The position numbers and the translations under genes are program-made. Below the pieces are notes generated by a model, which worked only from the letters and a program-made list of their open reading frames with translations, was not told where the DNA came from and ran no database searches. From positions 70,197 through 134,196 of the forward strand of contig JBAZWC010000001.1 of the NCBI GenBank assembly GCA_041660565.1: a stretch of DNA of 64,000 nt, in the 5' to 3' direction. The DNA is from Patescibacteria group bacterium (GTDB lineage: Bacteria; Patescibacteriota; UBA1384; CAJBMM01). This document shows positions 5,015 through 60,650 of the stretch, piece by piece (within the stretch, counting starts at the first letter, position 1; each line of letters begins with the position of its first letter).

Positions 5015-5761
5015 ATGAACATCGAGTTTTCAGGCTACGGGTTCACTGTCCTATGCACCTACTTACCCGTTGACATTTTCGAGCGGGCAATGAGCTGGCT
5101 AGCAAAAGGAGGACAAGGTCGGCTGACGTTTGAGCCGTGGGATGATGGGATTGTCGACAATCCCTGGGCATCAACCGGCATCGGTGGTAGGACGATTCGT
5201 CGACTTCGGGATCTCGAATCGAATGGCCTAGTTTGCCTTGGGTGGCGTCGTTACGAGCTGGTCAAGTGTGTCGATTCGATGGTGCTACTTAGTTACGCAC
5301 TGTGGCCAGTGCTGGTTGGACAGTACGAGATGGCTCGTCCAAACAACGCGGGTCTACAAGTGGATATCAACGAGATCACGCGGGGCTATCGGGTGGCAGC
5401 CAACTTTGACCCAGTGGTTTGGGACGTGATCGAACACGCTGGATTCAAGGGGCTACTGCCCGCCATCAACACGCACATTCGTCATTGGTTTGAGGAATTC
5501 GCGGATGGACGCGAAGATGGGCAGTACACCACCGTGTTCAATGGGAAGGATGGGCCTACGTTGATGTTCTATCCGCCGTCTACCAGCCGTGGTGTATGGA
5601 TTAGCGGGTCACGTGAACCCGGGATCGATGGGCACCAGCTGTATGACCACAACACCGATGGCGCTCTTGATGTGATGGGGCATTTGGTGGCACTCTGTAC
5701 CGTGCTAGATCACTGCCGAAAGGCAATCGACTCGGGAATTCTCAGCACTGACGGTGCGTAG
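5015..5761 (+). CDS. Hypothetical protein, high-GC
   Basis: 248-aa ORF, about 55-58% GC; no recognisable motif. Confidence 0.4.
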   Translation: MNIEFSGYGFTVLCTYLPVDIFERAMSWLAKGGQGRLTFEPWDDGIVDNPWASTGIGGRTIRRLRDLESNGLVCLGWRRYELVKCVDSMVLLSYALWPVLVGQYEMARPNNAGLQVDINEITRGYRVAANFDPVVWDVIEHAGFKGLLPAINTHIRHWFEEFADGREDGQYTTVFNGKDGPTLMFYPPSTSRGVWISGSREPGIDGHQLYDHNTDGALDVMGHLVALCTVLDHCRKAIDSGILSTDGA

Positions 5762-5844: not shown

Positions 5845-5878
5845 CAGGGTATAGCTTAGTTGGTAAAGCGCTGGGGTT
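5845..5878 (+). other. Orphan tRNA 5' half (acceptor 5' strand CAGGGTA, complete D-arm GCTT/AAGC, anticodon-stem 5' strand CTGGG), then abruptly replaced by a GC-rich repeat
   Basis: CAGGGTA-TA-GCTT-AGTTGGTA-AAGC-G-CTGGG read directly. The 7-nt acceptor strand is exactly complementary to TACCCTG of the 3' half at 6455-6499. Confidence 0.4.
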
Positions 5879-5975
5879 GGCCTCCGCCCGTAGAGCTACG
5901 CCCGGAGGGCTCCGCCCGTAGGCTCCAGCCTGTAAGGCTTACGCCTGGAAGGGCTACGCCCGGAGGGGGTCAAAA
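5879..5975. repeat. GC-rich CTACGG/CCGTAGG/CTCCGCC module repeat
   Basis: ggcctccgcccgtagagctacgcccggaggg... ; the family recurs at 6330-6356, 6421-6460, 6499-6560, 19270-19400, 30960-31010, 35720-35800, 40790-40870, 49200-49240 and 60540-60640. Confidence 0.6.
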
Positions 5976-5977
5976 AA

Positions 5978-6238
5978 ATGTGCTATGTATATATATTGAT
6001 CAGCCAAGTTGATATGGAGCGGTATATTGGGTCAACTGTGAATCTTAGTGTTAGGCTGTCAGAGCATGATCTGGGGTTGGTAAATTCTACAAAAAATAGA
6101 CGCCCATTAAAGTTGTATGCTTATCAAATATGTGAGAATATCGGAGAAGCGAGAAAAATTGAGCATATGTACAAGGGTAGCCGGGGTGCTTATGACCGGG
6201 CGATTAAAAAAGGTCAATTGATTATCTTCGGGGAGTAG
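5978..6238 (+). CDS. Small stand-alone GIY-YIG nuclease domain protein
   Basis: YVYILISQ...RYIGSTVNLSVRLSEH matches the GIY-YIG core (GIY..YIG..R..H); the stop codon TAG (6236-6238) lies inside the 5' acceptor stem of tRNA-Pro. Confidence 0.7.
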   Translation: MCYVYILISQVDMERYIGSTVNLSVRLSEHDLGLVNSTKNRRPLKLYAYQICENIGEARKIEHMYKGSRGAYDRAIKKGQLIIFGE

Positions 6239-6305
6239 CATAGCGGCCTAATGCGCTGGGCTGGGGGTCCAGAGACCGGAGGTTCAAATCCTCTCTCCCC
6301 GACCA
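6229..6305 (+). tRNA. tRNA-Pro (anticodon GGG)
   Basis: Manual cloverleaf: acceptor CGGGGAG/CTCCCCG, D-stem GCAT/ATGC, anticodon stem CTGGG/TCCAG with loop CTGGGGG, T-arm GGAGG-TTCAAAT-CCTCT, discriminator A, encoded CCA. Confidence 0.8.
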
Positions 6306-6324: not shown

Positions 6325-6397
6325 CTGGGCTCCGCCCGTAGGGCTACGCCCGGAGGGGGTCCAGAGATCGGCAGTTCGAGTCTGCCATCCCCGACCA
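6325..6397 (+). tRNA. tRNA-Pro-like 3' portion: anticodon stem with a 24-nt palindromic insert in the loop, variable loop, T-arm GGCAG/CTGCC, acceptor 3' strand ATCCCCG-A-CCA. No local 5' acceptor or D-arm
   Basis: GGGGTCCAGAGATC identical to tRNA-Pro 39-48; compensatory T-stem and acceptor changes relative to 6229-6305; the expected 5' partner CGGGGAT was not found nearby. Confidence 0.4.
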
Positions 6398-6454
6398 TGA
6401 TATAATGAAGTCTGCGACTAGGCTGGCCTCCGGCTCTACGAGCGGTAGGCTCGG

Positions 6455-6499
6455 AGAGGGGTCCAGAGACCGCCAGTTCAAGTCTGGCTACCCTGACCA
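6455..6499 (+). tRNA. tRNA-Pro-like 3' half (TCCAG, AGACC, T-arm GCCAG-TTCAAGT-CTGGC, acceptor TACCCTG-A-CCA)
   Basis: Compensatory T-stem. The acceptor 3' strand pairs perfectly with the orphan 5' half at 5845-5851; the upstream sequence is a repeat module, not a D-arm. Confidence 0.4.
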
Positions 6500-7651: not shown

Positions 7652-7674
7652 GTTGAGATCGGACTTTATGAGCT

Positions 7675-7750
7675 GTCATTCCGGATTTAATCCGGAATCT
7701 ATATAATAAAGTCTTTTATAGTCTGGATTCCGGGTCGAGCCCGGAATGAC
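7675..7750. repeat. Double-hairpin palindromic repeat (GTCATTCCGG..CCGGAATCTATATAA // TTATAG..GGATTCCGG..CCGGAATGAC)
   Basis: Perfect terminal inverted repeats; family copies listed under 4798. Confidence 0.65.
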
Positions 7751-7756
7751 AAGGGA

Positions 7757-8443
7757 CTACAAGTTAATTTTAGTTAATTCAGCAGCTGGGAATTTTTCTA
7801 GCACCGGTTGCAATGTTTCTTCGTGTTTATCTAAATCAGCTCCGATTAAATAAACCGGCATAGGGTTTGCCGTAAAATGCTCTAGTCCCGGGCCGTGGTC
7901 TCCCATGGCAATACTAAGCGCAATTTCTAGCTCTTCTTTTTGCCATTCGGCGTCAGGTGCGTATGCGTGGCTGAGTAAAAATGAATCATCTACTGCGGCA
8001 GCTTTTGTATCTAGTTTTCCGGTGTAATCAATTACAATACATGGTTCGCTGTGTTTGTGTGGATCGCCATTAGCTTTGTAGTCGTAGTCTTCGGACCAGC
8101 CAATTGATTTAACGGGCATTGTACTACCAATTCCATCCGCCAATTTTTGAGCGGACCACTGCGCGATCTCGTCTTGGCTACGTTTATCGCCGGTACGCTC
8201 TTTATAAACCGCGCACGCACCGCAGTGTTCGTGCCAGGTGACGGTTAGGGTAGCGGGATTTACGCCGTGGTTTAGCAGATTTTGTTTGAATTTGGTAATT
8301 TGTGCATCGGAAAATAAAACGCCACTTCCGGCTAAGCCCAGAAAAGGTCGTTCAAGTCCGTTTGGCCGAATACGCCCGTCCATACAGACAATAGCTTGAG
8401 GATTTAGTTTTGTTGATTGGTGTAACTTTATGGCGTCTAGCAT
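7757..8443 (-). CDS. Hypothetical protein with beta-carbonic-anhydrase-like metal-binding motifs (CMDGR ... HEHCGAC)
   Basis: CxDxR and HxxCG spacing resembles the beta-CA zinc ligands; start placed at MLDAIKLH because the upstream ORF extension overlaps a microsatellite-like repeat. Confidence 0.4.
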   Translation of the reverse strand: MLDAIKLHQSTKLNPQAIVCMDGRIRPNGLERPFLGLAGSGVLFSDAQITKFKQNLLNHGVNPATLTVTWHEHCGACAVYKERTGDKRSQDEIAQWSAQKLADGIGSTMPVKSIGWSEDYDYKANGDPHKHSEPCIVIDYTGKLDTKAAAVDDSFLLSHAYAPDAEWQKEELEIALSIAMGDHGPGLEHFTANPMPVYLIGADLDKHEETLQPVLEKFPAAELTKINL

Positions 8444-8576: not shown

Positions 8577-9263
8577 TTAGAAAATCTGTGGGGCGCCGCG
8601 AATTGCCAAATTAGCAATTCTGAGTAACGGATCCATAATCCGGCTAAGCAAGTTAAATCCGCCAGAAGAGCCAAAAATAATATTAGAAAATACAAGCGTC
8701 AGTAGAAGCGCCGGACCAATGCGTTCCCAAACTTCACGCGCTTCGTGGTCTAAAAAGTAATTTACAATTTTTGATCCGTCGAGCGGGGGAATTGGGATGA
8801 TGTTGAATACCGCCAAAATGATATTAAGCGACACTATGGCGTCTAAAAATAATAAAAATATCGATTGATCGGTTGGCAAGCCGGCAATGGTCATAATTCT
8901 GGCGGGTAGAGCAAAAATTAACGCCACCAGTAAGTTTGAAATTGGGCCGGCAATTGCAATTTTAATCTCATCTAAATCAGATTTTAACGCATTCGGATTG
9001 TATGGTACCGGTTTGCCAAATCCAAATCCGGCAAACACAAATAAAAATAATCCCATTGGATCAATATGTGCCAAAGGATTCAGAGTGAGTCTACCTTGAT
9101 ATTTTGCCGTATCATCACCCAAACGATTTGCCATCCATGCGTGAGCAAATTCGTGCACAGACAAAGCTAGCATTACCCCAAGCACAATACCACAAATTGA
9201 AACGATCGCCACAATCGGCTGGTGGGCGTTTTGTTGCCATAGTTGTAAAATTAACACTTGCAA
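8577..9263 (-). CDS. Site-2 protease family (peptidase M50) membrane metalloprotease
   Basis: HEFAHA zinc motif (HExxH) in a TM helix, second motif LDGS, multiple TM segments. Confidence 0.75.
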   Translation of the reverse strand: MQVLILQLWQQNAHQPIVAIVSICGIVLGVMLALSVHEFAHAWMANRLGDDTAKYQGRLTLNPLAHIDPMGLFLFVFAGFGFGKPVPYNPNALKSDLDEIKIAIAGPISNLLVALIFALPARIMTIAGLPTDQSIFLLFLDAIVSLNIILAVFNIIPIPPLDGSKIVNYFLDHEAREVWERIGPALLLTLVFSNIIFGSSGGFNLLSRIMDPLLRIANLAIRGAPQIF

Positions 9264-9367
9264 AACTCCGTAAATTAAGTTACAATAATTATTGTTGATC
9301 GATTTTTTTGAAACGCATTTTAAATATAAAGCAATTGTCCGGATAATGAAACACTATAGGAGATGCT

Positions 9368-9682: not shown

Positions 9683-9929
9683 AGGGATAGCTAGGGAGCA
9701 AAAGGGACGATAAAGGGAATGATAAAATACTCTGTCATCCGTACTCAGACCTCCGTTTTCTGCTACCCCTCTTGCATTTATTTCATATTCGGTTATACTT
9801 ATAGATAGGAACTGTTTCCTTAGGTCCTAACTGATTAGAAAAATGAAGTTTCCTTTATTTTTTCGCTAAGCCAAGGACAGAACCCTCAAGTATGGTCGAT
9901 CTTGGGTAGCCAAAAAACAAAGGAATAAT

Positions 9930-10292
9930 ATGTCATACGAAGACAAAACATTAGTTTGTAAAGAATGTGGTAAAGAATTTACATGGACCGCTGGTGAGCA
10001 AGAATTTTATGCTCAAAAAGGTTTTACTAACCAACCAAGCCGATGCAAAGACTGCCGCCAAGCAAACAAACAACACAAAGACGAACAACGCACAGAAATC
10101 ACCTGCAAACAATGTGGCAAAAAAGATACTGTTAACTTTAAGCCTCATAACCCAGACGATATCTTGTGCAACGAGTGTTTCACCAAGAACCGAGCACAGG
10201 TTCACTCTTTCGCCCCTGCCTCTGATAGCAAACCTGCTGAAGAGCCAGTTGCTGATGAAAAATCAGACGAAGAGACCCCAGCTGCTGAATAA
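9930..10292 (+). CDS. Zinc-ribbon protein (two CxxC...CxxC units) with acidic C-terminal tail
   Basis: CKECGKEF...EQEFYAQKGF..PSRCKDCR and CKQCGK...CNEC. Confidence 0.55.
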   Translation: MSYEDKTLVCKECGKEFTWTAGEQEFYAQKGFTNQPSRCKDCRQANKQHKDEQRTEITCKQCGKKDTVNFKPHNPDDILCNECFTKNRAQVHSFAPASDSKPAEEPVADEKSDEETPAAE

Positions 10293-12214: not shown

Positions 12215-13204
12215 TCAAAACTTATAATTTTTTAGTTCTTTTATACTCATCCGTTTTTCGGTCTGCAAACGGCGAATCTCTCTGGCTCTATCTACAGCCT
12301 TGGTTTGGTACAACTGATAACCCCCAACCGAGGTATTATAAATTGGAATCAACCCTTCTTCGGTCCAAAATCTAATTGTGGCAATGGTTTCATTAGCGGC
12401 GGCGGCAACCTGCCCGATTTTCAATAATTTATTGGAAATTTTGCGTGGGCGTGTTTTCTTTGCTGGCTCGGGCAACTCAGTTGATGCTGTTGATGCGATT
12501 GATGACAAAAACAGATTCAAAGAACGGTCAGTTGCCTCAAAAATCAACTGATAATAATCATCCAATTGGGCATCAGCCTGCGCCACCTCCAAATCGGTGA
12601 CATAGCGGCTTTGATCATCAACCCGAATTACGGCCGGTGGATAACCGTTCTGCAATAAAATTAAATTCATTAACAATCGTGCCGTGCGGCAGTTTGCCTC
12701 TACAAATGGGTGAATGGTAATTAACTTTAAATGTGCATCGGCTGCAATTTGAACCGGATGTTTGGTGTGATTGCCGTTTAGCCACTGCACCATTTCGGCC
12801 ATCGCCACGTTAACTTTTTCATTTGGTTCGTTGCGTACGGTGCCGGTACGATATTGTCCGGCGTGAACGCTATCTACTTTATTCATCAATATGCGATGGA
12901 TATGCAAAATTTCTGCTTGGCTAATGTCTTTAGTTTTAATAGTATTCGCCAAGTGACGTACGTATTCCCAAGCTAGCGCGTGATTGTGGGTTTCAATTAA
13001 ATCTCGAGCCTGTGAGTTTTGCCAGTTTTCCACAACTTCTTTTGCTGCGTCCACAGTGATGTTTTTGCCGGATAGGGCAGTGGAGTTGAATGCCAAATCT
13101 AGTTTATACTGATGATTAAGTTTAGCTAAAACATCAACCGAAATGGGCATCGCAGCCATCAGCTGGCGCTGTTTGGTTTCTAATTGTTCGAGAGTAATTG
13201 ACAT
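12215..13204 (-). CDS. Fic/Doc-family protein with degenerate active-site motif (HPFVEANCRTAR) fused to a C-terminal MerR-type HTH
   Basis: The motif aligns to HPFx(D/E)GN(G/K)RxxR with G->A and G/K->C; C-terminal IGQVAAAANETIATIRFWTEEGLI resembles the MerR HTH. Confidence 0.6.
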   Translation of the reverse strand: MSITLEQLETKQRQLMAAMPISVDVLAKLNHQYKLDLAFNSTALSGKNITVDAAKEVVENWQNSQARDLIETHNHALAWEYVRHLANTIKTKDISQAEILHIHRILMNKVDSVHAGQYRTGTVRNEPNEKVNVAMAEMVQWLNGNHTKHPVQIAADAHLKLITIHPFVEANCRTARLLMNLILLQNGYPPAVIRVDDQSRYVTDLEVAQADAQLDDYYQLIFEATDRSLNLFLSSIASTASTELPEPAKKTRPRKISNKLLKIGQVAAAANETIATIRFWTEEGLIPIYNTSVGGYQLYQTKAVDRAREIRRLQTEKRMSIKELKNYKF

Positions 13205-13430: not shown

Positions 13431-13459
13431 TTGACAAATATAATCTAGTATGTTAATAT
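13431..13459 (+). promoter_or_regulatory. Near-consensus sigma70-type promoter (TTGACA-17 bp-TAATAT)
   Basis: Perfect -35 hexamer, 17-nt spacer, 5/6 match at -10; no ORF in the next ~700 nt, T-run at about 13612-13618. Confidence 0.35.
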
Positions 13460-13973
13460 GTAAGAGTTGCAATCAAGCAAGGCTAAAACCAAGCGCGATA
13501 AGCAGCAGAACCCAAAAACAAAAACGTAAAAATGGCTTGTCTAACATATGTCGGTAGCATATCAAGACGCCCCTTCCTCTATATAGGGATTGGACGTCGG
13601 ATGCGGACAGGTCTTTTTTAAAACAAAGCTTTGTTTTTCTGGCATATGGGATTTATCCCACGCGCTGGAGGGCAGATACCTTTTGAATAAGAGGTGACTG
13701 TTCCAAAGTTAGATCAACCAAGTCTTGGCAAAAATTGTCAAATTACTGGTTCACCTAATCCTTTGGAACAGAACTCTTCTTTCAGCAAAAGTAGGTTGAT
13801 GGCGAAGAGAGCCGTAAATATCAGATCTTGTAGAATTTTTCTTCAAGACGGCGCTCGCCAAAAACTGCTGACAAGTAGACACATGGAGCGGGGACAACAC
13901 CACCTAAAAGTAGATACCCCAGAACCGGCACCTTAACAAATTATCCTTTTCTCTGGTTGACATACATTTTATT

Positions 13974-14061
13974 GTCATTCCGGACTAGATCCGGAATCTA
14001 TGTATAAGAATCCTCGTCTTAGGCTAGGAAAGATTTATTCTTTACTAACCCAAGCCGATGG
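13974..14061. repeat. GTCATTCCGG hairpin unit plus the about 60-nt module GGCTAGGAAAGATTTATTCTTTACTAACCCAAGCCGAYGG
   Basis: The same 60-nt module recurs at 15170-15224. Confidence 0.6.
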
Positions 14062-14215
14062 AGTTTAACTTCGTCTGGCCTACCCCTCCCCGGGGTTAAT
14101 GCCGTCACGGCGTTGGGGAAACGGCATCTGGTGCGTATGGCGTAAGCCGCGCACCAAGTATTCGGTCAGCGTAACCGTAAGGCGAAGTTGACCAGATCCC
14201 TGGGAGGGGAAAAAG

Positions 14216-15037
14216 ATGGAATCCGCTAACGGGCAGATCGTCGACGCGTCTCATGTCGTCGACAATCCAGAGTCGGATCTCGTGACGATCTTGTCGCAGA
14301 ACGGTGGACGGACTATCGAAGTGATAGTGCCCGACGTCTGTGACCACGAGACGGTTTCTGAGCGCCTTTCGAGGCTGCTTGGAAAGCACGTTTCCGACTC
14401 CGACCTTTCCTCCGTTTGGGTTGGAGAGGAAGAGAAGCAATGCGCTTCTCTGATAGTCTCCTCCGACAAGGAGGGAGTACTGCAGGTCGCCCATAAGGAG
14501 GGCAACAAGATGAACCGCAAGCAAGCTTTGGCGCTGATTGGCGCCGCCGTGTCGTTCGGGTACACCGTGGTGGAAACGTTCGCGGACAACCGCGCGCTCC
14601 CCGCGTTCAGTCCTGCAGGCCGCCCGGGTTCCTGGTCGGATGTCGCGGAAGCGTATTACGACCGCTTCTTCGACCTTGATGACCTCTCCCAGTGGGAGTC
14701 GGTCGTCGGGCTGCTCCAGAAATGGTCCCACACGCGTGAGGCCTTCGGGATTCTGATCCCGACCCGGGACGATTTTGTCCTGGAGATCGAGCGCGCTGTT
14801 CGGCAGCGCCCGATCGACGGGGAGATGTACGTTCCCGAGGCTATGCCGCTTGCCGAGGCGGTCTGTAAGATGATCATGCTCGGCGCCACCACGGAGGAAA
14901 TCCTCGGCTGGGTCGAGGAGATCAACCTCCACACTGACGGCCAGGCACCGATCCTGTTCGACGCAATCGAGCAGGCGAACGAGCCTCGGTCGGAGCGGGG
15001 TGGCCGCGGCCGCGAGGCGGCCGAGGCCAGCAACTAG
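14216..15037 (+). CDS. Hypothetical protein, cassette 1 of high-GC island
   Basis: 273-aa ORF, about 60% GC, strong RBS GGGAGGGG 7 nt upstream; the opposite-strand ORF 14105..15130 is judged a GC shadow. Confidence 0.5.
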   Translation: MESANGQIVDASHVVDNPESDLVTILSQNGGRTIEVIVPDVCDHETVSERLSRLLGKHVSDSDLSSVWVGEEEKQCASLIVSSDKEGVLQVAHKEGNKMNRKQALALIGAAVSFGYTVVETFADNRALPAFSPAGRPGSWSDVAEAYYDRFFDLDDLSQWESVVGLLQKWSHTREAFGILIPTRDDFVLEIERAVRQRPIDGEMYVPEAMPLAEAVCKMIMLGATTEEILGWVEEINLHTDGQAPILFDAIEQANEPRSERGGRGREAAEASN

Positions 15038-15044
15038 TTCCACG

Positions 15045-15116
15045 GAGGGGTGGGTGCAACCGCACCCGCCTCTCCTCATTCCAAAGTTTCCAAAAGGTTG
15101 GGGACTTTGTAGATGA
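15045..15116 (+). promoter_or_regulatory. Conserved inter-cassette element, copy 1: GC hairpin (terminator-like) plus 45-nt box CTCCTCATTCCAAAGTTTCCAAAAGGTTGGGGACTTTGTAGATGA
   Basis: Hairpin GGGTGGGTGC-AAC-CGCACCCGCC; 28-nt palindrome CAAAGT..ACTTTG at 15082-15109; repeated 4 times in the island. Confidence 0.6.
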
Positions 15117-15125
15117 TTTCCTCTT

Positions 15126-15224
15126 GTCATTCCCGCGAAGGCGGGAATCCAGTCTATGAAAAACTTTCGATAATCCTTGGTTTAGGCTAGGAAAGATTTA
15201 TTCTTTACTAACCCAAGCCGACGG
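15126..15224. repeat. GTCATTCC(CG..CG)GGAATC hairpin plus 60-nt GGCTAGGAAAGATTTATTC module
   Basis: Low-GC host-type repeat inserted between cassettes 1 and 2. Confidence 0.6.
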
Positions 15225-15287
15225 ATGGCTTGATGTCCGAGTCTATAAGTCCTGACCCAAATGGGCAGGCAGGGCAAGGAGATTTCA

Positions 15288-15758
15288 ATGGAATTCGACG
15301 CTTCGTACAAACGGGCAAAGCGGCTGCTCGGTCAGAACTTCAGGGCGATGTGTCGTGAGGCTCACGCCCTGGCAGCGATGGGTTTGCCCATCGCGGTCTA
15401 CCAAGACCATGTCGTTCTGCTCCCAACGTATGGGACGACGAACGATTTCTTCTATCTCATGGCCGAGGGGATAGAGCATTGGTACGTCCGGTTCTGGTGC
15501 TGCAACGCCGAACCGGAGTTCGGCCAGACCGACTACCATGAGTCCCAGCAGATTGGCTCAGGCAGTCTGGAGTTGGTTGCCCGATGGTTCCGCGAGCAGT
15601 TAGAAGCTCGTGGCTGCCAGGCCGCCCAGCTGGAGAAGTTGGCCGCTGTTATGGCGGCTATCCTGCCGGAGGCGGCTTCCGTCGCGGCTCCGACAGACTT
15701 GGAGCCACCGAGGTTCACCCTCGGTGATCAGCTCCGAGAGATGGAGACCGGCAAGTAG
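15288..15758 (+). CDS. Hypothetical protein, cassette 2
   Basis: 156 aa from ATG at 15288 with RBS AAGGAG 7 nt upstream (the ORF track extends to 15261). Confidence 0.5.
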   Translation: MEFDASYKRAKRLLGQNFRAMCREAHALAAMGLPIAVYQDHVVLLPTYGTTNDFFYLMAEGIEHWYVRFWCCNAEPEFGQTDYHESQQIGSGSLELVARWFREQLEARGCQAAQLEKLAAVMAAILPEAASVAAPTDLEPPRFTLGDQLREMETGK

Positions 15759-15765
15759 CTCACAC

Positions 15766-15839
15766 GGAGGGGTGGGTGCGCAAGCGCCCACTCCTCTTCA
15801 TTCCAAAGTTTCCAATACGTTGGGGACTTTGTAGATGAA
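15766..15839 (+). promoter_or_regulatory. Conserved inter-cassette element, copy 2 (hairpin plus 45-nt box)
   Basis: ggaggggtgggtgcgcaagcgcccactcctc followed by ttcattccaaagtttccaatacgttggggactttgtagatga. Confidence 0.6.
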
Positions 15840-15843
15840 GAAA

Positions 15844-15955
15844 TGACTCCCCGTAGGGGATGGTATACACTTCGGGTGGGTCGCGACGACTCGCACCTAC
15901 CCACGACCCGCCTGACTAGGGGTGAAACTCTGGCAGGCAACAGGGGAGAACGGAA
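15844..15955 (+). ncRNA. Conserved about 110-nt leader type A, copy 1 (candidate cis-regulatory 5' UTR)
   Basis: More than 90% identical to 16791-16899 although the downstream ORFs are unrelated; contains CCCCGTAGGGG and GGGTGGGTCGCGACGACTCGCACCTACCCACGACCC stem potentials; ends in RBS GGGGAGA. Confidence 0.4.
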
Positions 15956-16618
15956 ATGGCTACAGGAAATATGTCATGGCTTGGCTTGGAAGTTGAGCCG
16001 ACCGTCGACGCAAAGTACCGCGTCGATTGGCAGCAATATGGTGGCCCGCGCGGCGGCCAGATGGTCGTCCGCTATGCCACTCGCGAGTGGCTGGAGATGG
16101 CGGTCAACTTCCGGGTTGCACCGTACACCGGAGAGCACTTCATCTCCGACTCCTGCTTCGAGAGCAGCCGGGAGGAGGAGTACATGGTGGCCGCCGCTCG
16201 CCGAACGGCAATGCGGCACGGCATGCTCCCTGACGTGCCAGGCCCGCAGGTCGGATATTGTGTCCGCCTGCAGCACTACCTGGGCCAGTGGTCGGCGGAG
16301 AACTTCCCGGCGACCACGAACGTGCCAGACGGGCATGTGGCGTCTCGGGGCACCGATCAGATGCCCATCTTCGGAATCGTCGATGGGTGGGCGGATGACA
16401 CAATATCCGGCCCTCCCACCCTTCGGGTGATCGTGAAGCGTGAAGCGCTCAGAATCATTGAGCGCGAGGTCAGGGCAGCCGCCAGTGCGGATGCCAGGGT
16501 TGCCCGTACCGGCTTCCTCACGGCGGAGGACGTGGACATGTCCACGGGCACGTATTCGCGTGTCTACGAGGCAATGATTCGGGTTTACCGTGGACATGTC
16601 GTAGCCTCAAACCAGTAG
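15956..16618 (+). CDS. Hypothetical protein, cassette 3
   Basis: 220 aa, about 62% GC; overlapping minus-strand ORFs judged GC shadows. Confidence 0.5.
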   Translation: MATGNMSWLGLEVEPTVDAKYRVDWQQYGGPRGGQMVVRYATREWLEMAVNFRVAPYTGEHFISDSCFESSREEEYMVAAARRTAMRHGMLPDVPGPQVGYCVRLQHYLGQWSAENFPATTNVPDGHVASRGTDQMPIFGIVDGWADDTISGPPTLRVIVKREALRIIEREVRAAASADARVARTGFLTAEDVDMSTGTYSRVYEAMIRVYRGHVVASNQ

Positions 16619-16716
16619 ACATACGCAATAGAAGTTTTTGGATCGTTCTTCGGCAAAAACGATCTGGCATCCCGATGCGCATAATCGGGAGGTTCGCGAT
16701 CCAAATCGCATTCGTT

Positions 16717-16788
16717 GAGAGGCGGGTGCAACCGCACCCGCCTCTCCTCATTCCAAAGTTTCCAAAAGGTTGGAGACTTTGTAGATGA
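16717..16788 (+). promoter_or_regulatory. Conserved inter-cassette element, copy 3 (perfect 13-bp hairpin GAGAGGCGGGTGC-AAC-GCACCCGCCTCTC plus 45-nt box)
   Basis: Read directly. Confidence 0.6.
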
Positions 16789-16790
16789 AT

Positions 16791-16899
16791 CGACTCCCCG
16801 TAGGGGATGGCAATACGCTTCGGGTGGGTCGCGACGACTCGCACCTACCCACGACCCGCCTGACTAGGGGTGAAACTCTGGCAGGCATAAGGGGAGACG
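16791..16899 (+). ncRNA. Conserved leader type A, copy 2
   Basis: See 15844-15955. Confidence 0.4.
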
Positions 16900-17475
16900 A
16901 TGAGTACGACAACAAGTGGAACCAGCCCTGGGCGACGCACCTTCTACTACGGGCGGTCTGGTGGCTTGCACGCCACCGGCGAGGCAGCAACGCGGCTGCT
17001 GGAGATCATCAGGCAGCCGCCGTACGATCTCCTCCCGTTCCTTGGAGGAGAGGATATTAGTCTTCCAGAAGGTACGGGTCTCGCAGATGTCGCGAAGTGC
17101 GAGGCGTTTTTCACGCCATGGGTCAAGGTCTGGGCGCCGCGTCGAATCGTTCGTTACCTGTTGTCGCTGGTGCCAGAGGCGACTTACCACTGGTGTCCGT
17201 GGGAGGGAAAGATTCCTGCGGGATGGCTGACCATCCCGAACTACGACAGCCAGGTTCCTCAGTCCTTCCTGGACTGGGTCGCGGAAACCGGAGGAGTTTT
17301 TGACGAGCCCTCCGGCGGAGCGGTCTGGCTCAAGTGGCCGAACATGCGGCAGGTACATGTCCAGTTCGAGAAGGGGGATTTCCCGGAGGATCTGATTATC
17401 TCCGGAAACGGCCGTAGGTGGTATCTGGAGCGGTATGCCAACGGCCTGGAGATCCTCAACATCCGCGAAGTCTAG
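16900..17475 (+). CDS. Hypothetical protein, cassette 4
   Basis: 191 aa; RBS AGGGGAGA. Confidence 0.5.
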   Translation: MSTTTSGTSPGRRTFYYGRSGGLHATGEAATRLLEIIRQPPYDLLPFLGGEDISLPEGTGLADVAKCEAFFTPWVKVWAPRRIVRYLLSLVPEATYHWCPWEGKIPAGWLTIPNYDSQVPQSFLDWVAETGGVFDEPSGGAVWLKWPNMRQVHVQFEKGDFPEDLIISGNGRRWYLERYANGLEILNIREV

Positions 17476-17481
17476 TCTACT

Positions 17482-17556
17482 GGAGGGTAGGGCGCTGTTC
17501 GCGCCCGCCCTCCTCATTCCAAAGTTTCCAAAAGGTTTGGGGACTTTGTAGATGAA
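17482..17556 (+). promoter_or_regulatory. Conserved inter-cassette element, copy 4
   Basis: GGAGGGTAGGGCGC-TGTTC-GCGCCCGCCCTCC hairpin plus 45-nt box. Confidence 0.6.
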
Positions 17557-17761
17557 TTTAGACAGGTTGGTCGGTTCGTATGTGCATCATATTTTATGAA
17601 TCATATACGAGCTGGTTACCCTGCCAACTTGGCCCTCCTCGGGCTTATGCCGTTCAGGCGTAAGGGAAAAAGATGCGTATGGCGCATAGCCGCGCATCTG
17701 CTTTGTAGGCCATCTAAGCCGTAAGGCAAAGTTGACCGAACCCCTGGGAGGGGGAATAGAA

Positions 17762-18892
17762 ATGGCAACAATCGCCTTTCGCAAGAAGGGTGAGACGGCT
17801 GAGCTGCCGCTCACGGGAATCGTGGATCCGTCCACGGTGACAGTATGTGACACCGCGCCGAGTGGTGCGCCTGTTGCAAAACGGGACCGACTTCAGTATA
17901 AGTTGGTTCCCGTGCCGGAGGGGACGTTGCGCCTTCGGATCCCAGTCGTACAGATCCGGTCGTCGCAGCTGTACGACGGCTGGATGACAGCCCGGGAATT
18001 TTGGGATAACCACCCAGACTTCCGGGGCGCTATCCTTAATGTGGATAGCGGGTTAAGGGCGTTCAGTGTGATCAACACGCTGTTTGCCCGGTTCGAAGAC
18101 GTTTGGCCCGGGCACCCCGTCCCGGCCGATATTCTTGCCGCGAGGCAGGAGATCGCCGAGGAAAAGCGGCTGGCGGCCGCTGAGGAAGTGGCCCGCCAGG
18201 AAAGTCAAAGGTCGTGGGACGCTATGTTGCAGAAAACCCACGACCTGATTGCCCTGGTGATGGGCGATATACCAGAAATCGTTCGTCATCAGAACGAATA
18301 CTGGAGTTTCTCGGTGAGTTCAATGGAGAGGTCGGTTTCTCTCCATACCCTTATACAGGGTGTGCGCTTCTACTTTGTCGCTAAGCATAATGACGTGCAG
18401 GTGGCGGCAAGGAGGGTGCTTGCCCTCCGCGATGAGTGGCGCACCAGTCCTCCCGGGGGCTTCGTCTTTTCTCCTGATACCCAGACGTACTGGGATTTGA
18501 AGGAGGAGAGCTGGAGTGGGGGGTGGCGGCTGGACGAGTGGTGCCGTGTGGCCAAGTGGCTGCGCGAGCAACACGAGGCCGCCGAGAAGGCGGCAACCGC
18601 GGAAGAAGCGGAGGAGCGCCAGTGGCTCTTCCAGTTACGCGGGATCATGATCCCTCCCCTGTACGGGGAGCAGCTGGTGGCTGTCCCAATGGTGGATAGC
18701 CGCGCTTGTTCGCCCAACGAGGCTAACTGGTGGGGGCTTTACACCCCCGACGGCAAGCCATACCTGATCCGTCGCGGGATCCACGTCCGGTACAGCTCTC
18801 TTGAGGGGCTGATCCGGAACCACTATCGGGACGAGCGGGGGATCATGGAGGAAGCGCTTTTATTGCTTTCTTCATTGATCCACTCGCTGTAG
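17762..18892 (+). CDS. Hypothetical protein, cassette 5
   Basis: 376 aa from ATG 17762 (RBS GGGAGGGGG). Its about 130-nt leader (type B) is about 80% similar to the leader of cassette 1 (14090-14215). Confidence 0.5.
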   Translation: MATIAFRKKGETAELPLTGIVDPSTVTVCDTAPSGAPVAKRDRLQYKLVPVPEGTLRLRIPVVQIRSSQLYDGWMTAREFWDNHPDFRGAILNVDSGLRAFSVINTLFARFEDVWPGHPVPADILAARQEIAEEKRLAAAEEVARQESQRSWDAMLQKTHDLIALVMGDIPEIVRHQNEYWSFSVSSMERSVSLHTLIQGVRFYFVAKHNDVQVAARRVLALRDEWRTSPPGGFVFSPDTQTYWDLKEESWSGGWRLDEWCRVAKWLREQHEAAEKAATAEEAEERQWLFQLRGIMIPPLYGEQLVAVPMVDSRACSPNEANWWGLYTPDGKPYLIRRGIHVRYSSLEGLIRNHYRDERGIMEEALLLLSSLIHSL

Positions 18893-19185
18893 CCCAAAGC
18901 GTTTTGGTAGTTTTTCGCATAATGAAACTAGCCACTGGGGTGGGGAAGAAAATAAATCTTCCTCACCCAACTGTCCCCCGCAAGAAACGGGGCTGATGAG
19001 TCGTTGAAAATTACGACGAAACAGATAAGGAAATTAAATCAGCTTGAGCGTAAAAAACCAAGCATGCTCACCGACGGATTATAGCCGTTTTGGCACCGCA
19101 AGATTATATAATCGTTTTAGCAATAAGACGGTTGTTACTACCGAATCTTGCGGGACCAAAGCGGCTTTTTGAGTACCAAAATTCT

Positions 19186-19400
19186 AAATCCGAAGCACTA
19201 AATCCGAAGCACTAAATTCGAAACAAATTCGAAATTGAAAATTCAAAATCGTAAAACGGGCGGACATCCCCCTTCGCCACCTCCTACGCTACCTCCTACG
19301 CTAAAGCTTCGGAAGGTCAAGAAAGCTACGGAAGGTCAAGAAGGCTACGGAGGACAAGTATGAGTCCGCCCCTACGGTGCTCGTCAGGCTGACCGTAAGG
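19186..19400. repeat. Microsatellite-like (AAATYCGAAGCACTAAAT) plus GGGCGGACATCCCCC..CCTACGCTAAAGCTTCGGAAGGTCAAGAA..GTCCGCCCC module repeat
   Basis: Module near-identical to 60530-60640 and partly to 6499-6560. Confidence 0.6.
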
Positions 19401-19467
19401 TCTGGTGTTGATCAAAATGAACATATCTGTTAAAATAAGTACATTGGTAGCCAGAATATTAATAATT

Positions 19468-19543
19468 GCCGACGTAGCTCAGTTGGTAGAGCAACTGTTT
19501 TGTAAACAGTCGGTCCGCAGTTCAAGTCTGCGCGTCGGCTCCA
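19468..19543 (+). tRNA. tRNA-Thr (anticodon TGT)
   Basis: Acceptor GCCGACG/CGTCGGC, D-arm GCTC-AGTTGGTA-GAGC, anticodon stem ACTGT/ACAGT with loop TTTGTAA, T-arm CGCAG-TTCAAGT-CTGCG, CCA encoded. Confidence 0.8.
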
Positions 19544-20911: not shown

Positions 20912-21118
20912 GTTGTATGATGGGAGGGGGAACATCACGATTTGTTATCGCAAAAGAATTGTAGATCACGCTTTAGCGTGTTAGAGAACCAATTTGAAAG
21001 CAAGCTAAAGCTTGGTCTACGGTCGTTCACGGAAAACAATAGGGGATGTGCTGGGCACGGGCGGGTCTCCAAAACCTGCCTCGAAGCGTCCGATTCGCTT
21101 ATCCCCTGCCAAATAAAT

Positions 21119-44975: not shown

Positions 44976-45318
44976 AGCGTCTGTCACGCAAACTATTGAC
45001 AAAGTTTAAAAAATAGTATAGAGTGTTGGTGTATGAGTAACACATATTACCAATATGGTCTAAAAACGGCAGATGCTTTCTAGCGCATTCTCTTGATGAG
45101 TTTGCGATTTTTTGCATCGCCCTTTATTCTATATATAGATATGATGTTAGAACCTTAATAACATTTCAAGAACTCCTCTAGTTAGTGCCGCCAAACAAGC
45201 TGGCGCACCGTATCTGGCTAAACCCGGATGTGGTTCGACATACTTGGCACACTCGCCGGCTTAAAAGGCTGGCACTATCTATCGCCACACGTAGGTGCGG
45301 CGAGGAGGAGACAGTAAG

Positions 45319-47091
45319 ATGAAGCGAAATCTAATTCTGCTTCTCGCCGCTATGATCGTCATCGCGACGGTCGGATGTGGTGGAGGCGGTGGGGGTTCTA
45401 ACCCCCCGGCCAAAGAGACTCGGTCGGCCAACGTGGCCACCGCGACCTTTGGTTCGCAGTATCTCAAGACGCACAATCTGTTGGTGCAGTGGGTCGGCGA
45501 CAAAACCGGCACTAACTACGGCACCTGCAAGATCGAGAGCGTCAACAAGACATCGGGTACCGGCACGCTGTCGGTCAACCCCGATGGGAGCATCAGCTTG
45601 ATCAACGATCTTCCGGCTGATGTCTTCAACTTCACGTTCGTGACGCATCATCCCCCAATCGAATCCGGAGATCCGCAATACGACCAGCTACTGACGGGCA
45701 CGGCAACGATCACCATCGTCCCCGAGTCCACATCAACCAACCCCACCAACTTCAACATCCCACAAGGCGGGCAAATGACGCTGGTGGCGCGGGCGCAAAA
45801 CGCCCGAGCTACGGGAGCTGAAGTTGTCCGCGTTACTGCGGCTGACACGTCCCGCGTTCCGGTGAACGTTGAGGCCACATGGGTGATCAACCCGCCGAAT
45901 GCGGGTAACATCGTCAAGAACACCGGCGAGACAACGTACACCTTCACAGGCGCCGCGGCTTTCACTGGCACGTTCACGCTAACGGCACATATCGCTAACG
46001 CGATGGACCAGCCGGCAGCAGTCAACGGCAACGCCATTGCCCACCCGACCATTGGGGTTTCCAATCCTACGGAAGGGCAGACTGTCAGCGGCACGGTTAC
46101 CGTGCAGTTTGCCGCCCAGAACGCCACAAGCGTGTACTGGAAGGTAGACTCTGGTACCGAGATGTTGGCATCAAGCAATTCGTTCCCGCTTGACACGACT
46201 ACTCTATCCAACGCCAACCACACCCTGAATTTTAGGGCAGTGGGGCAGTTGGAGACCGTAACGCTGTCTCGCGCGTTTACGGTTAACAACCAAGTGCCGT
46301 ATGACCCGGGGAAGGCCGGCAAGCTGACCTTCACCGGTGGTACGTACAATACCAACTCGGATAACTCCGGCAAGATGGTTAGTACGTTCTACATGTTCAA
46401 GACTGGCGGGGCGGTGGCCGTTGATAAGGCGGATACCATCCGCTTCTTCAACGCCGCGGGCACGGTGGTGAACACCGTGCAGACCGCCGACTATGGCTAC
46501 CCGGTGGCCGTTACCTCTGGTGATGTTGTCTGGGCTGTGCGCCGGAACTTTGGGCAAGTTCGGCTACTCAACAAGACCGGAGCAGTTGTCAACACTCTGA
46601 CGGTTGCGGGGGCTAATGACGCTGCTTACGTGGCCCAAACCGGTAAGGTGCTGGTTAGCGGCAACAACGGTATTCGCGAGTACGACCCGAACACCCTGGC
46701 GTACACCCAGCTACGCACCGACCGTGCCACTGCCGTAACTGGCGACGATCGGTACGTATTCTATCAGGGTACAGGCGACGGATCCGATCCGACTATGCTG
46801 ACAATCTGGAAGTTGGATCGGACAACCGGGTCAATCGTTGCCATCGCCAAACCGGGCATCCTGTTCAGTCTGTATAGCCCGCCCGGATTCAACTGCGTCG
46901 TGGGCACCGACGGCACGTCCAAGACCGTGAAGGTCTGGGACAAGTCGGGAGGCCTGTTGTCCTCAACCCCGCTCCCGAACGGGGAGCAGGTTGTGGGCAT
47001 CGGCGTTGACATGAGCGGAGATGGTAGCGGGCTGTTCATTACGCCTGACATCTCGCTCTTCCAGTATCGGGCACAGATTGTGCCCAACTAG
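45319..47091 (+). CDS. High-GC surface lipoprotein with Ig-like/beta-propeller-like domains
   Basis: Lipobox IATVGC followed by GGGGGG linker; about 58% GC; RBS GAGGAGGAG; start at 45319 (the ORF track extends to 45295). Confidence 0.5.
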   Translation: MKRNLILLLAAMIVIATVGCGGGGGGSNPPAKETRSANVATATFGSQYLKTHNLLVQWVGDKTGTNYGTCKIESVNKTSGTGTLSVNPDGSISLINDLPADVFNFTFVTHHPPIESGDPQYDQLLTGTATITIVPESTSTNPTNFNIPQGGQMTLVARAQNARATGAEVVRVTAADTSRVPVNVEATWVINPPNAGNIVKNTGETTYTFTGAAAFTGTFTLTAHIANAMDQPAAVNGNAIAHPTIGVSNPTEGQTVSGTVTVQFAAQNATSVYWKVDSGTEMLASSNSFPLDTTTLSNANHTLNFRAVGQLETVTLSRAFTVNNQVPYDPGKAGKLTFTGGTYNTNSDNSGKMVSTFYMFKTGGAVAVDKADTIRFFNAAGTVVNTVQTADYGYPVAVTSGDVVWAVRRNFGQVRLLNKTGAVVNTLTVAGANDAAYVAQTGKVLVSGNNGIREYDPNTLAYTQLRTDRATAVTGDDRYVFYQGTGDGSDPTMLTIWKLDRTTGSIVAIAKPGILFSLYSPPGFNCVVGTDGTSKTVKVWDKSGGLLSSTPLPNGEQVVGIGVDMSGDGSGLFITPDISLFQYRAQIVPN

Positions 47092-47127
47092 TTCCGGTAG
47101 CACCTCCCTAGTGTGGTGAAATATCCG

Positions 47128-47178
47128 CACACCCCCGACTCAGGTCATTATGACTGGGCGGGGGCTTTTTTTTATACA
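47128..47178 (+). terminator. Rho-independent terminator
   Basis: CCCCCGACTCAGGTCAT-TATGACTGGGCGGGGG hairpin followed by CTTTTTTTTT. Confidence 0.6.
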
Positions 47179-47198
47179 AAAAATCCTAAATTCCTTAA

Positions 47199-60454: not shown

Positions 60455-60650
60455 CTCATTCTTTAATTTCTCCCTCCTTCGCTCATCCTAGATTCGGAAC
60501 GGCACAGCGGGCGGAACGCTGAGCGTCCCATTGCCCCGCTCAGCGGGGCGGACATCCCCCTTCGCCACCTCCTACGCTAAAGCTTCGGAAGGTCAAGAAG
60601 GCTACGGAGGACAAGCATGGGTCCGCCCCTACTTAGGTCGTGAAAGTTAT
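60455..60650. repeat. Mosaic repeat (GGAACGCTGAGCGTCCC; CCCCGCTCAGCGGGG; GGGCGGACATCCCCC..CTACGCTAAAGCTTCGGAAGGTCAAGAAGGCTACGG..GGTCCGCCCC)
   Basis: Related to 40705-40913 and 19260-19400. Confidence 0.65.

Follow-up and report, generated by a model that had tools for sequence, protein, structure and literature searches.

The DNA described here is a 64-kb window (the whole stretch that was analysed, 64,000 nucleotides) of a 516-kb contig from a Patescibacteria metagenome-assembled genome (MAG). Between 14.0 and 19.0 kb the window carries an island with 57-61% guanine plus cytosine (GC), versus about 40-47% in the rest of the window and about 42% in the MAG, as the original prediction of a high-GC island had stated. 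Five open reading frames (ORFs) follow each other on the plus strand of the island, separated by four copies of a two-hairpin module, and four of them stand behind one of two types of repeated leader (Table 1). This organization had been likened to a gene-cassette array. Two related arrays, named here L003 and L007, support the likeness, because what differs between them is entire cassettes, and the breakpoints coincide with modules and leaders.

All five ORFs are present, and their codon positions show a consistent order of GC content, with GC3 (0.71-0.78) above GC1 (0.60-0.66) and GC1 above GC2 (0.41-0.48). Long minus-strand ORFs mirror the codon composition of the plus strand, and one of them (341 amino acids, aa) exceeds the ORF1 that it overlaps. 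The codon-position signature indicates that the plus-strand frames are coding and that the minus-strand ORFs are their shadows. No mutual similarity was found among the five cargo proteins, nor any significant match in Pfam, PHROG, PADLOC, NCBIfam or the PDB sequences, in line with the earlier description of same-strand genes with neither domains nor likeness to each other. Proteins 1 and 5 matched only themselves among 5.8 billion proteins. For protein 5, an exhaustive HMMER search of 1.84 billion representatives retrieved one distant homologue, P0003 (32% identity, E 2e-27), and a two-sequence profile search with this family added P0004. The genes of both lie in arrays of the same design as that of the window. 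A structure model of the family, built on the three-sequence alignment, reached a predicted local distance difference test score (pLDDT) of 42.5 and was unusable.

A 50-nt stretch within cassette 1 (14914-14963) shares 83-85% identity with hypothetical-protein genes, named "gene 25", in six Microbacterium phages, at E values from 2e-5 to 8e-4 for 2.3 Gb searched. This is the sole likeness of any cargo to phage DNA, and it is probably a chance GC-rich match. Orphan modules of polymorphic toxins were considered as well, and dropped, as the cargos have no common coding N-terminal parts.

The modules correspond to a 72-nt hairpin-plus-box repeat, for which four copies had been claimed and four are present, starting at 15045, 15767, 16717 and 17483. 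The box pattern has these four matches versus 0.00 expected from shuffles, and none elsewhere in the 64 kb. As plus-strand RNA, each module folds into two directly adjacent hairpins, H1 and H2, with z scores of the minimum free energy (MFE) from -6.5 to -9.4. H1 consists of 13-14 GC-rich pairs; its sequence differs among the copies with the pairing kept, and two pairs are changed on both sides. H2 takes up the whole box previously described as a 45-mer, UCAUU-C-CAAAGUUUCCAA-loop-UUGGGGACUUUG-UA-GAUGA, and forms about 17 pairs. A 28-nt palindrome reported inside the box is present, but it is imperfect as DNA and belongs to this longer hairpin of 41-42 nt, from UCAUU to GAUGA. Among the H2 copies, the loop carries two substitutions and one insertion, and the stem a single change, from U.G (three copies) to U-A (one copy), at alignment columns 53/67. 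All non-Watson-Crick stem positions are G.U on the plus strand, so that the antisense strand folds worse, by 3.5-13.7 kcal/mol in all four modules. Such changes indicate that the two-hairpin modules are kept by selection.

The box had also been proposed as a promoter/operator that, after a terminator, gives one transcription unit per gene. The arrangement TTTCCA-17-TAGATG exists in it, but it went unreported in a sigma-70 consensus scan, its -10 element is without the conserved final T, consensus promoters lie elsewhere, and the box is one hairpin, all of which speaks against this proposal. The H1 copies of the window have no T-tract and are followed by CUCAUUCC or UUCAUUCC. They were not called by a terminator scan and do not have the GC hairpin directly followed by a U-tract that marks intrinsic terminators. 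The box gave no match in IMG/VR, in the GTDB species representatives (the source genome is not among these) or in JGI metagenomes. In the 64 kb of the contig that were covered the box is confined to the array, unlike the dispersed palindromes known as repetitive extragenic palindromes (REP) and bacterial interspersed mosaic elements (BIME). A permissive Rfam scan of the island, the L003 contig and the L007 array found no match for modules or leaders; matches to microRNA and viral-element models, including the microRNA-model matches at 19083-19175, were long-hairpin artefacts. Several known kinds of repeat system were rejected: a CRISPR-like array (no short spacers), a diversity-generating retroelement or retron (the scanned ORFs encode no reverse-transcriptase domain), and a Xer/dif-type 11-6-11 site (hairpin length varies in the relatives).

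Both pairs of near-identical leaders that had been described, leader A before cassettes 1 and 5 and leader B before cassettes 3 and 4, proved real by alignment, and in each pair unrelated ORFs stand behind one leader. Mean column identity is 93% between the copies of leader B (96% over an 85-nt core) and 82% between those of leader A (71-79% in ungapped blocks). The predicted folds pair the Shine-Dalgarno (SD) sequence in three unrelated leader types of the window, with z scores of -3.4 to -5.6 for A and B. A helix of leader A carries double compensatory changes (GGUGCG/CGCACC vs GAUGCG/CGCAUC), as read from the aligned sequences. By eye, the same SD pairing occurs in the leader of the first L003 ORF and in the leader of a 141-aa cassette in L003 and L007. 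AGGAG-type ribosome-binding sites are also used by host genes. The leaders are predicted to mask the ribosome-binding site, a feature that the original prediction had overlooked, together with the hammerhead candidate described below.

P0003 and P0004 are encoded on contigs from other samples and other assemblers, L003 (14.3 kb) and L007 (21 kb of an 82-kb contig). Both contain a host-type palindrome, TGTCATCCCGG..CCGGGATCCAG, which points to related small-genome bacteria. In both, a GC-elevated segment (46-53% vs 30-40%) occupies one syntenic locus between a divergent TrmB-like gene and truB. Same-strand ORFans are split there by modules consisting of a variable GC hairpin, YUUUYUCCAG, a second hairpin and CUGAARAUUGKWAAA, and the conserved flanks of this box pair with each other, making the box one long hairpin. 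Across ten L003/L007 modules, 91.8% of the cells in the H2 alignment are paired, versus 26-49% when the partners are slid, and in seven of the 16 pairs both partners vary, one case being a C-G/U-A switch (5:5) within the conserved flanks. The equivalent of H2 varies from 37 to 78 nt, so that a fixed spacing of -35 and -10 elements is not possible. L003-type H1 copies are followed by three to five U (CCUUUCUCC, CCUUUUUCC), and partial termination at these sites is plausible. A covariance model of the L003-type module found all 11 modules, exclusively within the arrays and on the sense strand, and none in the window.

Altogether three arrays, from two lineages, were found. A synteny search in GTDB genomes via the neighbouring transketolase gave no relatives. 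Neither the shared protein nor the boxes had a match in IMG/VR or INPHARED, and the island DNA, compared with phages and plasmids, gave only a 50-nt GC-rich match and a 33-nt host palindrome. Three further loci (L004-L006) from a profile-based locus search in JGI metagenomes were false positives, caused by the shadow frame of an acyl-CoA-synthetase-like gene.

The DNA shared between L003 and L007 is about 80-84% identical, and the content of the arrays differs. In order, the cassettes encode 100, 370, 74, 141, 409 and 254 aa in L003, and 100, 135, 370, 141, 239, 281 and 99 aa in L007, with three cassettes in common and seven differing. The differences between these close relatives are insertions, deletions and replacements bounded by the motifs. 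For example, the 135-aa cassette found only in L007 has a perfect direct repeat of 227 bp on either side (9132-9358 = 9778-10004). Starting with a hairpin at the stop codon upstream, this repeat takes in H1, H2 and the leader and ends at ATGA. The 74-aa cassette found only in L003 is placed exactly between a pair of boxes; in L007 the pair is fused into a single box. Furthermore, a 350-nt leader (leader 2), 92% identical in L003 and L007, is followed by unrelated ORFs, and the homology stops at the start codon. In L003, a CopG/BrnT toxin-antitoxin pair (13568-14117) lies between the array terminator and truB, and is missing from L007.

The three shared cargos have ratios of nonsynonymous to synonymous divergence (dN/dS) of 0.16-0.29, versus 0.03-0.08 for the flanking host genes, which indicates purifying selection on the cargos, weaker than on their neighbours. 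Their synonymous divergence (dS), 0.38-0.75, compares with 1.1-1.9 in the flanks (array at 8.0-13.5 kb in L003 and 8.8-14.9 kb in L007). This low dS suggests that array content was exchanged after the backbones had diverged, or that silent sites are constrained.

The borders of the arrays are marked as well. A single plus-strand promoter-like site lies between the upstream gene and the window array, about 640 nt before leader A, and would drive the array. The same sigma-70 scan detected a canonical promoter ahead of tRNA-Thr (19408-19436). In L003, scans placed a 12/12 consensus promoter about 470 nt before the first ORF and a canonical T-tract terminator at the end of the array; the equivalent promoter and terminator of L007 were recognised by eye. 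The cassettes are all on one strand, with candidate promoters upstream in the window and in L003, and with boxes that fail the sigma-70 scan.

At the other end of the window array, 76 nt past the last cassette stop codon and 440 nt ahead of the tRNA cluster, lies a candidate type III hammerhead ribozyme. It is the only noteworthy non-tRNA match to an RNA family in the window (permissive Rfam scan), with 41.8 bits versus a gathering score of 48.5, and an E value of 1e-5 for the 64-kb window. The catalytic core is complete (GUC / CUGAUGA / GAAAC), stems I and II have 5 bp each, and stem III, with 4 bp and one further pair, is open as in type III. The hairpin directly 5' of the predicted cleavage site could possibly protect the resulting 3' end.

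Stretches of about 500 nt between the candidate promoter and the first leader or ORF (13460-13970 in the window, 7546-8015 in L003) are untranslated and had no Rfam match. The small ORFs in them (80 aa with a GTG start in the window, a 46-aa called gene in L003) look doubtful, and in L003/L007 the stretch includes a GC-rich, apparently structured segment (about 7700-7900). Directly upstream of the arrays lie divergent genes for helix-turn-helix proteins, with Fic and MerR domains in the window (12215-13204, minus strand) and TrmB-like in L003 (6597-7373, minus strand) and L007 (7448-8221, minus strand). These proteins are possible regulators of the array promoter.

Table 1. Positions of the array features in the window, with the evidence for each.
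Feature	Position	Strand	Evidence
Candidate sigma-70 promoter of the entire array; TTGACA-17-TAATAT preceded by TG	13431..13459	+	10/12 consensus match
Host-type low-GC repeat, TGTCATTCCGG..CCGGAATC palindrome plus TAGGCTAGGAAAGATTTATTCTTTACTAACCCAAGCCGA	13973..14062	+	repeat-family search
Leader A, copy 1; predicted branched fold closed by CCUCCC pairing with GGGAGG SD	14085..14215	+	MFE -62.2 kcal/mol, z -4.2
Cassette 1 ORF, 273 aa, ORFan, NCBI hypothetical protein WC773_00445	14216..15037	+	coding GC3 signature; no family/PDB match
Module 1: H1 15044-15075 (14-bp GC hairpin), H2 15076-15116 (17-bp imperfect hairpin, the "45-mer box")	15044..15116	+	MFE -46.9, z -7.2; antisense -34.3
Second host-type repeat, between module 1 and cassette 2	15126..15225	+	93% identity to 14009-14062
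Cassette 2 ORF, 156 aa (165 aa from ATG at 15261)	15288..15758	+	coding signature; no family/PDB match
Module 2: H1 (GNRA loop GCAA), H2	15766..15838	+	MFE -45.2, z -7.5; antisense -31.5
Leader B, copy 1; predicted pairing of 5' CUCCCC with GGGGAG SD round a branched fold	15839..15955	+	MFE -51.9, z -4.7
Cassette 3 ORF, 220 aa	15956..16618	+	coding signature; no significant family/PDB match
Module 3: H1 (perfect 13 bp), H2 with U-A replacing the U.G of other copies	16717..16788	+	MFE -47.0, z -9.4
Leader B, copy 2	16789..16899	+	MFE -57.5, z -5.6
Cassette 4 ORF, 191 aa	16900..17475	+	coding signature; shares an exact-match Logan contig with cassette 5; no family/PDB match
Module 4: H1 (other sequence, same fold), H2 with one-base loop insertion	17482..17555	+	MFE -44.4, z -6.5; antisense -38.1
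Leader A, copy 2, after a spacer of about 75 nt, AT-rich (17556-17632)	17633..17761	+	MFE -56.8, z -3.4; CCCUCCU predicted to pair GGGAGGG
Cassette 5 ORF, 376/386 aa, NCBI hypothetical protein WC773_00465	17762..18892	+	sole cargo with relatives found
12-bp hairpin directly 5' of the predicted ribozyme cleavage site	18938..18968	+	found in both folds (MFE, centroid) of 18893-19185
Candidate type III hammerhead ribozyme, predicted to cleave 3' of C18975	18968..19027	+	Rfam RF00008
Long hairpin (23-nt arms, 87% complementary) then CTTTTT, terminator-like unit end	19083..19175	+	inverted repeat and fold

The island is compositionally foreign yet embedded in the host. Its neighbours are housekeeping genes both upstream (ArgRS, M50 peptidase, treble-clef zinc-finger proteins, a TPR protein, Pol III delta' and Fic/MerR) and downstream (three tRNAs, a kinase, dCMP deaminase, PspC and transketolase). 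The tRNA-Thr/Tyr/Thr cluster begins at 19468, and its proximity had been called consistent with horizontal acquisition. As a sign of integration this proximity found no support: the tRNA genes are 3' of the island, the scanned ORFs include no integrase, and the related arrays are not tRNA-adjacent. Two host-type repeats do interrupt the island, as claimed, and the palindrome family of the first has at least five copies in the window, also at 7674, 12126, 13219 and 38412. Dispersed intergenic repeats are unusually plentiful in the host genome and include TGTCATTCCGG-N7-CCGGAATCTATATAA palindromes, units ending in GGGTCGAAATGACA, and AAAGCTWCGGAAGGTCAAGAA tandem units (example sites: 7674, 12126, 13219, 13973, 38412; 13284, 21962, 22916, 35832, 62435; 6500, 19282, 60558). 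A palindrome in the second repeat, GTCATTCCCGCGAAGGCGGGAATCC (15128-15152), shares 97% identity over 33 nt with a site on a Photobacterium replicon, and so is a widely shared REP-like motif.

Elsewhere in the window, a second isolated high-GC unit (44990-47180, plus strand, 58-60% GC, GC3 0.72) looks like a single-gene version of the array design. Its gene (45295-47091) encodes a 598-aa lipoprotein-like ORFan in which a Big_7 Ig domain is borderline. By eye, a promoter-like sequence (TTGACA..TAGAGT, near 44997) precedes a structured leader of about 300 nt and unrelated sequence, in which CUCCUC is predicted to pair with the GAGGAG SD sequence (z -5.0), and a canonical terminator follows at about 47140-47175. 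A GC-elevated ORFan (5015-5761, 55% GC) adjoins an odd tRNA region that extends to 6500. In this region, a tRNA-like 5' half (about 5847-5880) is followed by tandem repeats, short and GC-rich, and by a small ORF that by eye resembles GIY-YIG (about 5979-6230). It continues with tRNA-Pro (6229-6305) and two extra tRNA 3' halves ending in CCGACCA or CUGACCA (6347-6397, 6449-6499). The fragments could be scars left by integration, or parts of a tRNA that is disrupted or contains an intron. At 21041-21111 (plus strand), ARAGORN called a 71-nt tRNA-Trp with the anticodon at position 29, which the Rfam tRNA model reported neither at the gathering threshold nor at E <= 0.05, and which may be an atypical tRNA.

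We consider it moderately probable that the island is a GC-elevated chromosomal array of independent ORFan cassettes, a rare hyperplastic locus type of Patescibacteria in which punctuation of RNA is combined with homologous shuffling of DNA. The upstream sigma-70 promoter would transcribe the array as one long RNA, which would end by hammerhead self-cleavage at 18975 and/or at the hairpin and T-run of 19083-19175. Within this RNA the modules would serve as punctuation, with H1 protecting or attenuating 3' ends, and H2, stacked directly on H1, acting as a processing or protein-binding site. The cistrons could thereby be handled separately, while the leaders would gate translation by hiding the ribosome-binding site. 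In the DNA, the repeated modules and leaders (70-230 bp, 85-100% identical) would be substrates of homologous recombination that inserts, deletes and replaces cassettes, with newcomers receiving ready-made expression signals.

Several observations weigh against this explanation. The single transcript and its processing are steps that we infer. The hammerhead candidate stays below the Rfam gathering score and has no counterpart in L003 or L007, and MFE folding of GC-rich leaders readily pairs CCUCC with GGAGG, so that SD sequestration is a prediction. The conserved hexamers of the window box, with their 17-18-nt spacer, would fit an unusual promoter. In the L003/L007 modules the asymmetry between sense and antisense folds is mixed, and H2 may have a role at the DNA level. 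Between the two lineages, the window box is analogous in architecture to the L003-type box and not detectably homologous, nucleotide similarity between the window and the related arrays is absent outside gene 5, and this one cargo family connects them. In the cargo search, all five cassettes were compared with the family libraries and the PDB, and cassettes 1 and 5 also with the large protein databases. Cassette turnover is documented for the L003/L007 lineage, and the window array is without a close comparator. Finally, the perfect 227-bp repeat could reflect a duplication followed by ORF replacement, and not the integration of a circle.

Among the competing explanations, a rather unlikely one takes the box at face value as a promoter. 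PeSL (promoter-early stem-loop) elements, mobile regulatory cassettes of T4-type phages, are composite stem-loop and promoter motifs that flank ORFans in hyperplastic regions, and recombination between them gives indels such as those of L003 and L007 (Arbiol et al. 2010, PMC2839356; Comeau et al. 2014, PMC4122927). In a strict version of this type, the stem-loop would sit between a -35 TTTCCA and a -10 TAGATG, H1 would be a terminator, and the genes would be separate transcription units whose motifs also shuffle. The hexamers and their 17-18-nt spacing are indeed invariant in all four copies, with variation confined to the spacer, and leader B begins directly after the box, at the expected transcript start. 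In addition, PeSL elements commonly have a stem-loop with G-T pairs between the -35 and -10 elements, flank ORFans at about eight per 5 kb, and may have promoters deviating from the consensus, for example TTTACW...TAYWAT (PMC2839356, PMC4122927). Against this stand the failed sigma-70 scan with the -10 lacking its conserved final T, the canonical promoters present in the same genomes, the missing T-tract of the window H1, and a conservation that spans the whole hairpin, well past the hexamers. The L003/L007 boxes, with their variable H2 length, have no fixed spacing and no good hexamers after H2. We give a slightly lower probability to an integron-like, site-specific system, in which H2 would be a folded-DNA site like attC, the recombinase would be encoded elsewhere, and the upstream promoter would act as Pc. 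Its appeal comes from cassettes that lie on one strand behind a strong candidate promoter and show no recognisable promoter individually, from ORFan cargo (74-409 aa) and a composition unlike that of the host, from modules confined to arrays, and from close relatives differing at the cassette level. H2 also resembles attC in its conserved, mutually pairing bases and in a variable top of variable length. However, no tyrosine or serine recombinase was found among the scanned window ORFs (immediate neighbours and recombinase-sized ORFs) or among the Pfam domains precomputed for the related loci (14 kb and 21 kb). A both-strand search of 14.0-19.1 kb by regular expression for attC R''/R' cores (RYYYAAC/GTTRRRY, 35-130 nt apart) found 0 pairs, so the earlier statement of no integrase and no canonical attC holds for what was scanned. 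Moreover, the module has two hairpins rather than one, unrelated ORFs share leaders, and a perfect 227-bp repeat that runs through the leader to the ATG fits homologous and not site-specific exchange.

It is improbable that the island is a functionless leftover of horizontal transfer, such as the early region of a phage from a high-GC donor, with hairpins that are old terminators or REP-like elements. The foreign composition, the resemblance of ORFan cargo to phage accessory regions, the lack of any assignable cargo function and the hammerhead, a motif common in prophages (PMC3088659), would fit such a remnant. Yet there are no phage genes nearby, the viral database searches for the shared protein and boxes were empty, and the only match of the island DNA is 50 nt long. 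Furthermore, the shared cargo is under purifying selection, covariation preserves the hairpins, the architecture is retained in arrays with unrelated module sequences, and an intact consensus promoter and terminator frame the L003 array. Least probable is an assembly chimera, in which high-GC DNA of another organism was joined to a Patescibacteria contig, as the original prediction had cautioned. The GC jump of 18 points is abrupt, and every look-up of the window island proteins led to a single run, SRR18595301. However, Logan contigs from an independent build of this run are exact to the window at 14029-15081 and 16858-19283, and both end inside repeats, as expected. The second of them continues from the island into about 390 nt of low-GC flank, up to a repeat that recurs identically at 60546. 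Because exact contigs bridge island and flank, and repeats of host families sit inside the island, mis-assembly is unlikely; analogous GC-elevated arrays in Patescibacteria contigs of other groups and samples also speak against it.

Patescibacteria, also known as the Candidate Phyla Radiation (CPR), live with tiny genomes and rely on other cells, and the ways in which they gain and try out genes are poorly understood. No description of such arrays in Patescibacteria was found in the searchable open-access literature. A survey of horizontal transfer in these bacteria mentions neither cassettes nor integrons (PMC12455944), and the papers found to combine integrons, attC and Patescibacteria are resistome or beta-lactamase surveys, which we judged unrelated by their titles and the openings of their abstracts. 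As a regular feature, the arrays would be a compact "gene nursery", in which orphan genes are plugged between ready-made expression modules without integron machinery, kept under purifying selection and swapped between lineages. The logic of PeSL and integrons would then extend to a new branch of life in a new molecular implementation. For experimental study, there would be about fifteen orphan proteins likely relevant to the symbiotic lifestyle, and new structured RNA motifs, comprising the H1/H2 modules, three predicted SD-masking leader types and the candidate hammerhead. More tentatively, the arrays may be an integrase-independent cassette platform of Patescibacteria, functionally parallel to integrons, with an open-ended array behind a strong promoter, whose modules and SD-masking leaders serve both as handles for capture and exchange of orphan genes between cells and as RNA punctuation. 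The elevated GC and the low array dS would in this case come from a mobile pool of cassettes that is shared, or from gene conversion with a bias at a recombination hot spot.

Known systems share parts of this design. The REP and BIME elements of enterobacteria are GC-rich intercistronic palindromes, dispersed throughout the genome, that can stabilise the upstream mRNA. Like them, the modules are GC-rich extragenic palindromes at gene 3' ends within operons; unlike them, they occur only in arrays, and the host's own dispersed repeats are another family. In phage T7, the early genes are separated by RNase III hairpins, an example of RNA punctuation. A further precedent comes from prophages, where hammerheads flank variable genes (Perreault et al. 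2011, PMC3088659). The likeness lies in structured RNA between unrelated genes, thought to cut a long transcript into single-gene mRNAs with protective 3' hairpins, and in the hammerhead candidate that ends the window array. The difference is that the array has one sub-threshold ribozyme candidate, its modules match no known ribozyme or Rfam family, and the processing of its transcript is a proposed step.

With integrons, and with clusters of attC sites lacking integrases (CALIN), the arrays share cassettes of 0.5-1.3 kb in the same orientation, here behind a single candidate promoter, a mostly ORFan content that varies among relatives, and a folded palindromic site with a conserved base and variable top at each 3' boundary. 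They differ in having no IntI that could be found in array neighbours, recombinase-sized window ORFs or the called genes of L003 and L007, as a complete integron would have and a CALIN would not. Two hairpins replace the single attC, the repeated leaders reach the start codon, and the 227-bp perfect repeat at an insertion points to homologous exchange. Of the known systems, the PeSL elements of T4-type phages come closest. Two features that define PeSL elements, namely a motif with a consensus promoter and a location in phage genomes, are missing from the arrays, and so are the defining features of integrons. They are chromosomal, with housekeeping neighbours and no phage genes or viral matches, and lie 13-18 GC points above the host. 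Their motif consists of two adjacent hairpins without a consensus sigma-70 promoter (in L003-type boxes without hexamers at fixed spacing), one consensus promoter and terminator frame the entire L003 array, and long predicted SD-sequestering leaders belong to the repeated unit. In common with PeSL elements, short conserved stem-loop motifs, often with G-T pairs, stand between small ORFans at about one per 0.6-1 kb, with four modules in 4.8 kb of the window and eleven across the L003 and L007 arrays. In both systems, close genomes differ by whole ORFs bounded by the motifs, and recombination between neighbouring motifs would explain these changes and supply the newcomers with expression signals.

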